Position numbers and translations under genes: made by a program
Source of the DNA: a bacterium
GTDB lineage: Bacteria; Patescibacteriota; Minisyncoccia; UBA6257; JAGOQP01
NCBI GenBank assembly: GCA_021814695.1
Contig: JAKAHY010000003.1
Coordinates: 20,692-84,691, forward strand
Reading direction: 5' to 3'
Length of the DNA stretch: 64,000 nt
Notes under the pieces: generated by a model
Database searches by the model: none
Seen by the model: only the letters and a program-made list of their open reading frames with translations
Told to the model about the DNA's origin: nothing
Part shown: positions 20,714 through 51,526 of the stretch, piece after piece
Numbering within the stretch: position 1 is the first letter of the stretch
Layout of the letters: each line of letters starts with the position of its first letter

Positions 20714-20932
20714 GTGTTCTTGAAAGACCAAGCTTCGTGTCCGCGACTCGCTCAGGCAGAACCGTCCACCGAAGGTGGCAAAGCGCTGATCGATTGCATC
20801 GGTCCGTCCGAGAAGTGCTCGGACTGTCCGCTCCGTGACAGCGACTGCCAGATCGCCTGGTTCGGGCAGGAGCCCGACAGGTTCAACAGTTTCCAGCGCC
20901 GTCGGGCGCTCAAGGATCTTCTGGGGGATTAG
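20714..20932 (+). CDS. High-GC small Cys-containing protein (~70 aa; GTG at 20714 or TTG at 20720)
   Basis: Promoter TTGACA-17-TATAAA, RBS GGAGG, terminator CCAGGCGTCGCCTGG plus T7. Five Cys (CPRL...C...C..C...C). Confidence 0.5.
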   Translation: MFLKDQASCPRLAQAEPSTEGGKALIDCIGPSEKCSDCPLRDSDCQIAWFGQEPDRFNSFQRRRALKDLLGD

Positions 20933-23730: not shown

Positions 23731-24054
23731 TCAGTTTGTGTGAGGGGGCTTCTCAACGAAGCCGTTGTCTTCCGCCCAGGCACGGAAGTCCGGTCCGGCG
23801 ACCTGGACGATGTTCTTGATCTCGACGATGAAGATCGTGCGCGGTCGGTAGTCGGTCGGGTCGGTGAACGCCTCCAGCTCTTCTTTGCAGTAGGCGATAC
23901 CGGCGGCCGAGAACATCGGGTTCTGGAGCAGCACTACCGGCAGGCATCCGGAGGGGACGGCGTCCCACTCCAGCGTTTTTCCTGGCACCTCGGTCCCGTA
24001 TTCGACGAGGAAGGTCTCCTTACTCATGTTGCGCGGGTTGATGTAGTAGCCCAT
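23731..24054 (-). CDS. High-GC hypothetical protein (107 aa)
   Basis: Promoter TTGACT-17-TATTAT, RBS AAGGAG, terminator AAGCTTGGCATCTGCCAAGCT plus T-run. Confidence 0.55.
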   Translation of the reverse strand: MGYYINPRNMSKETFLVEYGTEVPGKTLEWDAVPSGCLPVVLLQNPMFSAAGIAYCKEELEAFTDPTDYRPRTIFIVEIKNIVQVAGPDFRAWAEDNGFVEKPPHTN

Positions 24055-46755: not shown

Positions 46756-46784
46756 TTGACAATTATATTTATATATGATATACT
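46756..46784 (+). promoter_or_regulatory. Consensus sigma70 promoter TTGACA-17-(TGa)TATACT driving the GC-rich RNA
   Basis: Direct reading. Confidence 0.65.
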
Positions 46785-46790
46785 AACATC

Positions 46791-47121
46791 GTTGTACACT
46801 TAATAATGTCTAAGGTGTGTTCGGGGAGGCGCATATCGCGACGAAGCGTAATGTGCCAAACCGGACACCTCCAAAGGCGCTTCGAGCGCCAGACAGTGGA
46901 CCGATGGTCCACACGGGGCGGCTAGTGCTGCTCCACGAGTCCGGCCGTCAAGAATCGGTAATATCCGGCGGCATCAAGCGGATCAACCCGAAAACCACGG
47001 CTCGACTCCAAACACCCGGGGTAGCGCCCATGCATGCCAACCGCGGCTAAGTCCGCAACCGGCTCATAGGGTAATGCGCCCCACTCCAACAACAGGACGT
47101 TTCTTCGGAAACGTCCTTTTT
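46791..47121 (+). ncRNA. Candidate structured ncRNA (~330 nt, ~60% GC) with paired 5'/3' ends (GGCGCAU/AUGCGCC) and an intrinsic terminator. Identity unresolved
   Basis: Promoter plus terminator (GGACGTTTC-TTCG-GAAACGTCC-TTTTT) on the + strand. No credible ORF. Confidence 0.5.
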
Positions 47122-47186
47122 CATTTACCTTTATTTGGCAATTAGTTCTATAATTAAGATATTAGAATTAACCTGTTTAATTTAAT

Positions 47187-47480
47187 ATGACTCCACAACA
47201 ATTAAGGGAAAAACTGGCCAAAGGAGAAAAGGTTAAGATACTCGATGTCCGTGAGCGCGAAGAATATGAGCAGGGAGATAAAATAGAAGGGGCCGAAAAT
47301 ATGCCTATGGGCAGGGTTTTTGTAGAAGCTCAAAAAGGAACATTGCCGAAAGATGAGCATATAGTGACCGTATGCAAAACCGGAGGCAGGTGTGAAATTG
47401 TCGCCCGCGAACTCAAAAACAAGGGTTATAATATAGAGCATCTTGAGGGAGGAATAGATGAGTGGAAAAAACAAAATTAA
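47187..47480 (+). CDS. Single-domain rhodanese-like sulfurtransferase
   Basis: Active-site loop CKTGGRC. 97 aa. Confidence 0.82.
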   Translation: MTPQQLREKLAKGEKVKILDVREREEYEQGDKIEGAENMPMGRVFVEAQKGTLPKDEHIVTVCKTGGRCEIVARELKNKGYNIEHLEGGIDEWKKQN

Positions 47481-50040: not shown

Positions 50041-50181
50041 AACTTGATTGATAAGATGAGAGAGCAGAAACCAGTTTTTTAATACAAAAAAGCGCCTAAT
50101 TTTTCGGCGCATCACCTTTCACAATCAAAGATCGTTCGTTGCAATTCAAAAAGAGGCCATATTTGCCGATTCTTGTAAGGC

Positions 50182-50209
50182 TTGACAAATATATTCATTA
50201 TGCTATAAT
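50182..50209 (+). promoter_or_regulatory. Consensus sigma70 promoter TTGACA-16-TATAAT
   Basis: Direct reading. Confidence 0.7.
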
Positions 50210-50216
50210 GCACTCG

Positions 50217-50993
50217 TATTGAAAATCAAATAAAAGGAGGGAGGTGAGTGGAGGCGCAAAAAAGCGCCAGCGTCCGAAACAACAACCGCTACTCGTCGAC
50301 CGCTAACCGACATCGTGTCGGTTCTCAGGGCCCGGACCGAAATCTTGCCCGTGGCCAGAGCCGATTATGACTACTGACCAATTGGTCAGAGTCAATCATG
50401 GCTTTTGGCCCAAGGCGGGGATTTGCGGCAAAGGGGTCCCGAACGCGGTAGTAAAGTCCATGGAGGGCACAATGCTTTAGACTAAGGCCTAAGGCCCAAT
50501 CCGACGACAGACGATCCGCCGAGCCTCCAAGCGCGCAAGGGGTGCGCGCTACTACATAAATGACCCCACGGAAAAAAACGTGAGCGGAGGAAAACACCGG
50601 ACCACCATCTGGCACAGAGTAAAGGACTCTGGATAGCCGGCAAACCGCCGCGCCCCAAGTTAAGACGACGAAGCGGCACAGGGGCGTGGCACGAGAGACG
50701 ACGGAGGAGCCACGAATGCATACACTCCGTAGACTCAACTCATAGAGGGATGAAGCGGCGCCTCTATGAGTAGCTGTCCGAACCCGGGAACGACAGGTTT
50801 CCCAGGGCGTGACGCCGCCGGTTAGGGAGAAGACGGAGCGCTCTCCCGCGTAAAAAATGCTCCAAAAGTACTTTGTGCCCCGGGGATAAATGGGCCAAAC
50901 CCTGGGTGGAACAGGCCTCGTAAGCGCGACCGCGTAAGTGTCCCGCAACCGGGAGCGTCCAGCAAGCAGTACGGACGCTCCTTTTTCTTTTTT
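50217..50993 (+). ncRNA. Candidate large structured ncRNA (~770 nt, ~62% GC) bounded by a consensus promoter and an intrinsic terminator (GGAGCGTCC…GGACGCTCC plus T-run). Identity unresolved
   Basis: Sharp GC jump relative to the flanks. Many internal stems, e.g. CUCAUAGAGG…CCUCUAUGAG. All + strand frames are closed (the track shows no + strand ORF of 60 aa or more). The only long ORF (50325..50948, minus) is antisense to the promoter and terminator and is composition-driven. Confidence 0.55.
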
Positions 50994-51034
50994 AAATATT
51001 CACTAATATTTTTTTATAATGATATAATTAGCTT

Positions 51035-51526
51035 ATGAGGAAATTGAGCTACATTATTATTCCGCTGATTGCTTTGGCTACCGCTTTATCCGGAGGATGG
51101 TTTACCGGAAAGGGAATGAGTTGGTATAAAACAATAAATCTTCCCGATTGGACTCCGCCGGGAAGCGTTATAGGATTTGTTTGGACGGTTATTTTTATAT
51201 TGACGGCAATTTCCGCGATTATCGTTTGGAATAAATCCGAAAGGACAAAAAAATTCAAATGGGTCGTGGCTCTTTTTATAGTTAACATTTTTCTTAATGT
51301 CGGATGGAGCTTGGTATTTTTCTTTCAGCATCAGATCGGAGCGGCCGTTATGGATGCGTTTGCTCTCTGGCTCTCGGTGCTTCTTTTGATTCTTTATATG
51401 CGCATAATGGCTCATCAACAGGGAAAGATGGCGCTGTATTGGGCTTACATCGCATTGCTGCCGTATTTGATTTGGACAACTTTTGCCACATATCTGACCT
51501 ATGCCGTGTGGTTGTTAAACAAATAA
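51035..51526 (+). CDS. TspO/MBR family tryptophan-rich sensory protein
   Basis: 5-TM, Trp-rich (WFTGKGMSWYKTINLPDWTPP…). Confidence 0.85.
   Translation: MRKLSYIIIPLIALATALSGGWFTGKGMSWYKTINLPDWTPPGSVIGFVWTVIFILTAISAIIVWNKSERTKKFKWVVALFIVNIFLNVGWSLVFFFQHQIGAAVMDAFALWLSVLLLILYMRIMAHQQGKMALYWAYIALLPYLIWTTFATYLTYAVWLLNK

Follow-up and report, generated by a model that had tools for sequence, protein, structure and literature searches.

In the reduced genome of a member of the Patescibacteriota (Minisyncoccia, UBA6257; assembly GCA_021814695.1), we identified an interval of ~770 nt between a promoter and a terminator (positions 50182–50993, + strand) that is in all probability (roughly 0.85) a functional non-coding RNA gene, located directly upstream of a gene encoding the membrane protein TspO. 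Positions refer to the window, that is, the whole 64-kb stretch of contig JAKAHY010000003.1 (20,692 to 84,691) that was analysed. At the sequence level, the unit resembles stand-alone non-coding RNA genes in having its own promoter and terminator, no conserved open reading frame (ORF) and compensatory base pairing. It represents a previously undescribed family, although as a type it falls among the large ornate RNAs already described in bacteria, and, as far as the data show, this family is confined to a small clade of Patescibacteria (Candidate Phyla Radiation, CPR). The original prediction of a large structured non-coding RNA, possibly of a novel class, made from the DNA alone, is borne out by conserved sequence blocks, promoter, terminator and pairing, with neither an Rfam family nor a reading frame to account for them.

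Both transcription signals that had been proposed to bound the unit were located. The sigma-70 type promoter (TTGACA at 50182–50187, a 16-nt spacer and TATAAT at 50204–50209, + strand) matches the consensus at 12 of 12 positions, and its −10 element is preceded by TG, giving an extended −10 (TTGACA-16-TGnTATAAT, 50182–50209). It is the only TTGACA-N16–18-TATAAT site in the 64 kb, where shuffled sequences give an expectation of 0.04. Judging by the distance to the −10 element, transcription would start at about 50216 and proceed through an A/U-rich 5′ leader (50216–50239). The intrinsic terminator (50951–50993, +) consists of a 9–10 bp G+C-rich stem, formed by GGAGCGTCC (50952–50960) and GGACGCTCC (50973–50981) around a 12-nt loop, and a U5CU6 tail (TTTTTCTTTTTT, ending at 50993); an automatic terminator scan passed over this hairpin (50952–50993) only for its loop of more than 8 nt. 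The G+C content, taken over 200 nt at a time, is 0.30–0.34 upstream, 0.51–0.605 inside the unit and 0.365 downstream, and that of the whole unit is 0.578 vs 0.415 for the window. The predicted jump in G+C at the promoter and terminator is therefore real, and only the figure of 62% attached to it was slightly high, the maximum being 60.5%. The + strand is assigned to the RNA from the promoter and the terminator rather than from folding energy.

Homologous loci (labelled with L numbers below) were reached via the downstream 163-aa TspO gene, and every contig that has this type of TspO and enough upstream DNA carries the RNA directly before it. Besides the window copy, the RNA is full-length in L011, L013 and L066 and nearly full in L065, while L012, L063, L014, L015 and L064 hold 3′ halves or fragments. 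Identity between lineages is 48–74%, and the homologous RNAs have a G+C content of 0.53–0.58 vs 0.41–0.42 in their flanks. A perfect promoter with a similar spacer is repeated before the copies in L066 (2460–2487) and L013 (84–111), and is thus present in three of the four full-length copies. The terminator is kept in every homologue, including L013, where the stem in the same position has another sequence altogether (GGGGCACC/GGUGCCCC) and is followed by a U-run. The leader varies in length among homologues, being A-rich and ~110 nt long in L013, and the RNA of L011 measures only ~620 nt in all, with a middle part of ~220 nt largely absent. The terminator loops are unusually long (11–12 nt; 50961–50972 in the window and 957–967 in L013) and have GCAAG in common. 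The terminal hairpin may do more than terminate, as its stems are wholly different in these two loci and the loop GCAAG is common to them.

The non-coding nature of the unit emerges from the same comparison. As predicted, the unit has no + strand ORF of 60 aa or more, the longest sense frames being 40 and 37 aa, and gene callers annotated nothing in the interval. A protein gene, whether intact or decayed, is the least credible explanation considered: it could take the form of the 207-aa frame open on the − strand (50325–50948), of a small sense ORF, or of a G+C-rich acquired pseudogene, and in its favour are that open frame itself, a 20-codon GTG frame that can be read after AAAGGAGG near the 5′ end of the unit, and the fact that small proteins are genuinely encoded by other G+C-rich islands of the window. 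However, the 207-aa frame lies antisense to the conserved promoter and terminator, as had been pointed out, and has no relatives, since a search among 5.8 billion protein clusters returned only its self-match. It is interrupted in every RNA homologue, where the longest frames (113–114 codons) are other frames; the longest open frame varies in strand and frame among homologues, and none is common to them. The small 5′ ORF, whose conservation as a 20-aa leader peptide was checked, shrinks from 20 codons in the window to 13 in L011 and 5 in both L013 and L066, and the leader peptide was rejected. A search of the six translated frames against Pfam gave no match. In two homologue comparisons, mismatches fall about equally often on each codon position (64/59/51 and 116/106/96), and the gaps divisible by three number just 9 of 29 and 9 of 28. 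Because there is no shared frame, no three-base periodicity and no preference for gaps in multiples of three, the unit is non-coding; a conserved frame with synonymous-site variation, which the original prediction had named as the finding that would speak against it, was sought in the homologues and not found.

The density of stems noted originally corresponds to compensatory pairing among the homologues. The window RNA has a minimum free energy of −312 kcal/mol, with z = −5.5 vs dinucleotide shuffles, and independent folds gave z = −8.3 for L013 and z = −7.8 for L066, the three RNAs being 54–74% identical. Energy alone cannot assign the strand, because the reverse strand folds about equally well (z = −5.2). 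A consensus structure was obtained with RNAalifold on a seven-sequence MAFFT alignment, to which one hairpin was added by hand, and comprises 79 pairs in 13 helices. In this structure 91.1% of cells are paired, vs 31–47% when partners are slid by 1–3 columns and a mean of 87.4% (sd 0.6; 0 of 500) in column shuffles. Both-sided changes affect 15 pairs, vs 1–4 in slid structures and 6.0±1.7 in column shuffles (0 of 500 reach 15), and the covariation score is 0.156, vs 0.030–0.066 and 0.110±0.008, respectively, all these covariation figures being inflated by shared ancestry and the structure being derived from the same sequences. The hairpins checked by hand agree with the computed covariation. 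MAFFT misaligns some parts and the global fold is only partly resolved; helices 5–7 of the RNAalifold model (50673–50685 with 50914–50921) are probably misalignment artefacts and are not claimed.

The 5′ domain (50240–50528, +) is predicted to be closed by a helix, P1, between GGAGGU (50240–50245) and GCCUCC (50523–50528). P1 can form in the window, in L011, in L066 (GGUGAGG/CCUCACC) and, with wobbles, in L013, and the domain is closed in independent minimum-energy folds of both the window and L066 RNAs. In L065 (251–280), the 3′ strand of P1 is a tandem repeat of a 10-nt unit, CCGAGCCUCC, in ~2.5 copies, one copy being present in the window and L011. Within the domain, the hairpin ACCGACA-UCG-UGUCGGU (50306–50322, +) covaries between ACCGACA/UGUCGGU and GCCGGCA/UGCCGGC, with both partners exchanged in two pairs (positions 1 and 5, A-U to G-C) and a single partner in one more. 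A long hairpin ends in the tip CUGACC-AAUU-GGUCAG (50374–50389, +), a 16-nt palindrome whose stem covaries (CUGGUC/GGCCGG in L066, ~2654–2669; CUAGCC/GGCUAG in L065, 113–128) around an invariant AAUU loop (50380–50383); this tip is absent from L013. Being self-complementary, the AAUU loop could serve as a site of RNA–RNA self-association. A mostly unpaired conserved block, CGCGGUAGUAA...ACAAUGCUUUAG (50444–50480, +), is found in the window, L011 and L013, and partly in L066 and L065.

Downstream of the 5′ domain, the hairpin GCGCGC-AAGGGGU-GCGCGC (50531–50549) is followed by AAAUGACCCC, with CCCC at 50564–50567 (whole element 50531–50567, +). All five copies extending over this part contain the 17-mer GCGCGCAAGGGGTGCGC together with the AAATnnCCCC block. 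The loop GGGG and the CCCC at 50564–50567 form a candidate pseudoknot, made of invariant bases that show no covariation. The next hairpin (50609–50640, +) has the loop UAAAGGA, the tip CAGAG/CUCUG and the base CUGGC/GCCGG; its tip shows two to three both-sided pair changes with the loop kept (CGCAG/CUGCG in L013, L066 and L065; CGUCG/CGACG in L011).

The middle domain (~50641–50860, +) is mostly missing in L011 and variable elsewhere, L012, L013 and L066 differing in how long it is and in which hairpins it has. It includes the helix GCCGCGCC/GGCGUGGC (50647–50690, +), with counterparts GCCGCUCG/CGAGUGGC and GCUGCGCG/CGCGUAGC in homologues and both-sided changes at three positions across the window, L013 and L012. 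The loop of this helix contains the word ACGAC(A)GA, which, with GACGAC, recurs in predicted loops belonging to different domains, at 50504–50513, 50663–50670 and 50695–50703, and is kept in L012, L013 and L066; the recurrence may mark a repeated protein-binding or tertiary-contact motif. The hairpin CUCAUAGAGG/CCUCUAUGAG (50739–50770, +; counterpart CCCGUAGGGG/CCUCUACGGG) covaries as well, with 100% of cells paired in six sequences and three pairs changed on both sides, and the hairpin GGGAGA...UCUCCC (50825–50847, +) has a G-C, C-G or U-A closing pair depending on the homologue. Two long-range pairings are candidates. ACGGAG (50701–50706, +) is moderately supported as the partner of the invariant CUUUGU (50871–50876), with which both ACGGAG (window, L013) and ACAGGG (L066, L065, L063) can pair by A-U/G-U exchange, that is, with one-sided changes only; partial support exists for a pairing of CUACUCG (50289–50295) with UGAGUAG (50767–50773).

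The 3′ domain (50862–50950, +), which contains (G/A)GUACUUUGU, the helix CCCGGGG/CCCUGGG (50879–50906) and a hairpin with a GUAA tetraloop (50924–50946), is the best conserved part of the RNA, almost unchanged across 9 of the 10 loci, L013 being the divergent one. Its features include an invariant ACUUUGU and a probable pseudoknotted helix.

Bacterial structured RNAs longer than ~500 nt are few, namely the rRNAs, group I and II introns, OLE, GOLLD, ROOL, HEARO and a handful more, and each of the known large ones has turned out to be biochemically unusual. To our knowledge, no large RNA of the OLE, GOLLD, ROOL or HEARO kind is known from the CPR. We searched Rfam 15 (4227 models) at gathering thresholds and in permissive scans. 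At gathering thresholds, cmscan of the whole window returned only a SAM riboswitch located elsewhere, and at E≤10 the region 50100–51050 gave four chance-level matches, the best of which scored 22.8 bits and covered the terminator on the − strand, and none to RNase P, OLE, GOLLD, ROOL, HEARO, raiA, introns, transfer-messenger RNA (tmRNA), signal recognition particle (SRP) RNA, 6S RNA or rRNA. The homologous loci L011, L012 and L013, scanned at E≤5, yielded nothing on the RNA. The scan with all Rfam models, which had been set as a test of the original prediction, therefore produced no confident family match, and its suggestion of an OLE, GOLLD, ROOL or HEARO relative, or of a group I or II intron derivative, is not supported, no covariance model having matched at any level. 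A full-text literature search found no description of a large CPR or TspO-linked RNA.

One of the housekeeping RNAs, with RNase P as the candidate, could have diverged so far in the CPR that the Rfam models miss it, an explanation that we regard as very improbable. The words AAAGUCC, GCAAACCGCC and GAACCCGG resemble conserved regions of RNase P and do occur in the order found there, as had been reported, and the very strong promoter is of the sort seen in housekeeping RNAs; like RNase P RNA (RF00010/RF00011), the unit is G+C-rich, structured and apparently highly expressed. Nevertheless, the resemblance, already doubted when it was first described, does not extend to the homologues. AAAGUCC is replaced by AAGGCAA, AAGCGCC or ACGACCG, GCAAACCGCC by ACAGACCUCC or CCGCUCGCU, and GAACCCGG is not alignable; across L011, L013, L065 and L066 the words are altered or lost, L011 being without the segment that holds two of them, which is thus dispensable. 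Moreover, the RNA is about twice as long as RNase P RNA, neither the window nor the three homologous loci match RNase P, tmRNA, SRP, 6S or rRNA models at E≤10, and the family is absent from the scanned species representatives. An RNase P identity was rejected for the lack of a model match, the non-conservation of the words and the length.

It also seems improbable that the RNA derives from mobile DNA, from a phage or from an intron that happens to sit at this place, for example as a group II intron lacking its ORF, the RNA of a retroelement or the guide RNA of a transposon. Some large RNAs, among them GOLLD, ROOL and HEARO, are linked to mobile elements, the G+C content of the unit is unlike that of the genome, and the region is rearranged among relatives, synteny with L004, the closest of those reached via the upstream metallophosphoesterase (82% protein identity), breaking off ~60 nt upstream of the promoter. 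HEARO or IscB omega RNA (RF02033) and group II introns (RF00029 and related) are, like this unit, large intergenic structured RNAs with a G+C content above background. However, no intron, HEARO, GOLLD or ROOL model matches at E≤10, and no match to Intron_gpII or the D1–D4 models was obtained in the window or in L011–L013. No IscB, IsrB, HNH or TnpB gene lies nearby, and the gene lists of all loci show no reverse transcriptase, integrase or phage gene near the RNA. A group II intron was rejected, given that the 5′ end reads GGUGAGU, GGUGAGG or GGUGGUG, which does not fit GUGYG, that no model matches and that a promoter and a terminator delimit the unit; there is likewise no domain V and no interrupted host gene. 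BLASTN against 50,697 phage records and 72,556 plasmids found no match, and the matches in IMG/VR are chance. Finally, the 64-kb window holds a single copy, with its own bacterial promoter and terminator.

The genomic context of the RNA gene provides its only functional lead. The TspO gene (51035–51526, +; Pfam TspO_MBR, PF03073) has its own promoter box, TGATATAAT, at 51020–51028 (whole feature 50999–51526), and its ATG lies ~40–55 nt beyond the tail of the RNA terminator. In all ten loci (the window, L011–L015 and L063–L066), this ATG stands exactly 6 nt after TGnTATAAT and lacks a Shine-Dalgarno sequence, an arrangement in which the TspO mRNA would be leaderless and start at the AUG. The left neighbour of the RNA changes from a metallophosphoesterase in the window to a 74-aa gene in L011, a DUF4015 gene in L066 and something different in L013, and the genes to the right of TspO change among loci too, the RNA staying with TspO throughout. 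In relatives, the 74-aa gene, a polysaccharide deacetylase and the DUF4015 gene lie between the metallophosphoesterase and the RNA (L004 2864–3553, L066 426–2407, L011 1–70), and the window genome (49786–50180) appears to have lost all three, bringing the RNA beside the metallophosphoesterase. That the RNA and TspO have stayed adjacent while the surrounding genes were rearranged at least three times points to a functional tie with this protein or its operon. The rhodanese gene at 47187 is also without an obvious Shine-Dalgarno sequence.

This constant position, with TspO following directly on the same strand after a gap of ~40–55 nt at every locus and the pair outlasting rearrangements on both sides, would also be expected of a giant cis-regulatory leader in which sensing of a ligand or condition decides between termination at 50951–50993 and read-through into TspO. 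We consider this unlikely. The independent promoter of TspO, with its conserved extended −10 and leaderless geometry, argues against the RNA being a leader or attenuator. On a transcript reading through from the RNA, the AUG of TspO would be internal and, with no Shine-Dalgarno sequence before it, would lack a ribosome-binding site. No conserved pairing that could replace the strong terminator was found; an AGCGUCC repeat (50268/50955), evaluated as an antiterminator, is not kept in L011, L066 or L013 and was discarded. Neither dependence on read-through nor a conserved antiterminator, as expected of a riboswitch or attenuator, was seen. The RNA is also several times longer than any known riboswitch; we know of none that approaches ~750 nt, the known ones being several-fold shorter. 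In addition, ~220 nt of it are dispensable, as in L011.

Going further than the existence and limits of a non-coding gene whose base pairing is conserved, we infer the following course of events. The RNA would be transcribed from the consensus sigma-70 promoter, the strongest-looking in the window, to the strong intrinsic terminator, and would fold into the P1-closed 5′ domain, the conserved hairpin with its likely pseudoknot, the dispensable middle domain and the conserved 3′ domain. Most likely, the folded RNA would act in trans, as the scaffold of a ribonucleoprotein or RNA-only assembly or as a ribozyme, a proposal modelled on OLE, ROOL, GOLLD and raiA rather than on cis regulation of the next gene. 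The full reading, in which a trans-acting RNA is functionally tied to TspO, is at best modestly favoured. Its specific versions, namely that the RNA forms the core of a novel type of particle in these ultra-small bacteria by assembling with or acting on TspO in a membrane ribonucleoprotein like that of OLE and OapA, that it self-assembles, or that it is a new large ribozyme, are speculative.

The nearest analogy is offered by OLE RNA (RF01071), which is likewise a large (~600 nt), ornate, G+C-rich bacterial non-coding RNA with its own strong expression. The OLE gene adjoins oapA, which encodes a small multi-pass membrane protein, and the two products form a membrane-bound particle together (PMC3413148, PMC12265935). 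The OLE–oapA pair parallels the adjacency of the large RNA gene to that of the five-helix membrane protein TspO. The unit differs from OLE in having no RF01071 match, in occurring in Patescibacteria and not Bacillota, in its neighbour, which is TspO and not OapA, and in its far narrower distribution. GOLLD (RF01998) and ROOL (RF03087) are similar in size (~580–800 nt), in their many hairpins and in a modular build with variable parts. By cryo-electron microscopy, OLE, ROOL and GOLLD form RNA-only assemblies, which in the case of GOLLD and ROOL are homo-oligomers (PMC12286853). By comparison, the invariant AAUU loop could in principle mediate self-association of the present RNA. Unlike GOLLD and ROOL, the unit matches neither model, is not near tRNAs (40 kb separate it from the window's one tRNA) or phage-like regions, and is absent from phage records and IMG/VR. 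The raiA motif RNA (RF03072) is also a structured RNA that stands alone between a promoter and a terminator of its own; it is encoded upstream of one particular gene but is no cis regulator of that gene (PMC10861870). It differs in being ~200 nt long and widespread in Bacillota and Actinomycetota, and its model does not match here.

Several points count against a functional, trans-acting RNA tied to TspO. Both ends of the transcript and its abundance are deduced from DNA signals, and no recognisable promoter was found in the 165 nt available upstream of the L011 copy. The comparison comprises only ~5 independent sequences from one narrow clade; the inflation of the covariation figures and the near-equal stability of the reverse strand belong here as well. 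No biochemical activity is indicated, and the link to TspO could be mere inherited gene order in a few close relatives.

Even so, a reduced CPR genome is unlikely to keep an idle RNA gene of 770 nt with the best promoter of a 64-kb stretch. If the RNA does form a ribonucleoprotein or an RNA-only complex, or is a ribozyme, a genome of ~1 Mb would be keeping a costly 770-nt RNA for a function without known counterpart. Its defined ends, modular build, dispensable middle domain and one constant protein neighbour make it tractable for structural work, and the family offers a way into the roles of large RNAs in episymbiotic bacteria. Its narrow distribution limits both its general importance and the comparative evidence.

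Regarding that distribution, the next closest TspO type (55% identity; L016 and L017) has no RNA upstream, and none of the loci reached via the upstream metallophosphoesterase (L004–L010) carries it. When 185,579 species-representative genomes and the JGI metagenome contigs were each scanned twice for motifs conserved among homologues, 0 matches were obtained; neither the window genome itself nor the metagenome of L011 was returned. The 7 and 38 matches in IMG/VR were all attributed to chance by profile search. The patterns recover the local sequences, and L066 and L065, found later, break one of them. Because source genomes are evidently missing from the collections and the patterns are strict, absence from these collections is weak evidence of rarity, and suggests that the RNA family is not widespread.

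Other features of the window merit mention. A second G+C-rich unit of like design (~0.60; 46756–47125, +) combines a TTGACA-17-TGnTATACT promoter (46756–46784), ~330 nt without a credible ORF, and a terminator formed by GGACGUUUC-UUCG-GAAACGUCC and a T-run (47095–47121). It folds with z = −7.6, has no Rfam match even at E≤10, and its 3′ part is ~93% conserved in L004 (1–188). It probably encodes another structured RNA not described before, which lies 3 kb from the large one and shows no relation to it in sequence. The idea that it is a smaller paralogue of the large RNA rested on shared words in the same order (ACCGCG..UAAGU..CCGCA), which stand in different hairpin contexts; it was rejected, as the local alignment score (26) lies below the shuffle maximum (27) and the large-RNA profile does not match the smaller unit.

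Three more G+C-rich islands (0.57–0.63), at 2149–2607 (−), 20714–20932 (+) and 23731–24054 (−), encode small proteins of 152, 72 and 107 aa whose sequences look plausible; two of the genes have strong promoter-like sites and Shine-Dalgarno sequences. These genes may have been acquired, and because they encode proteins, G+C excess alone is not a marker of RNA genes here. The SAM riboswitch is of the SAM-I family (RF00162; 24450–24592, +), scoring 49.2 bits vs a gathering threshold of 44.4, with two insertions relative to the model.

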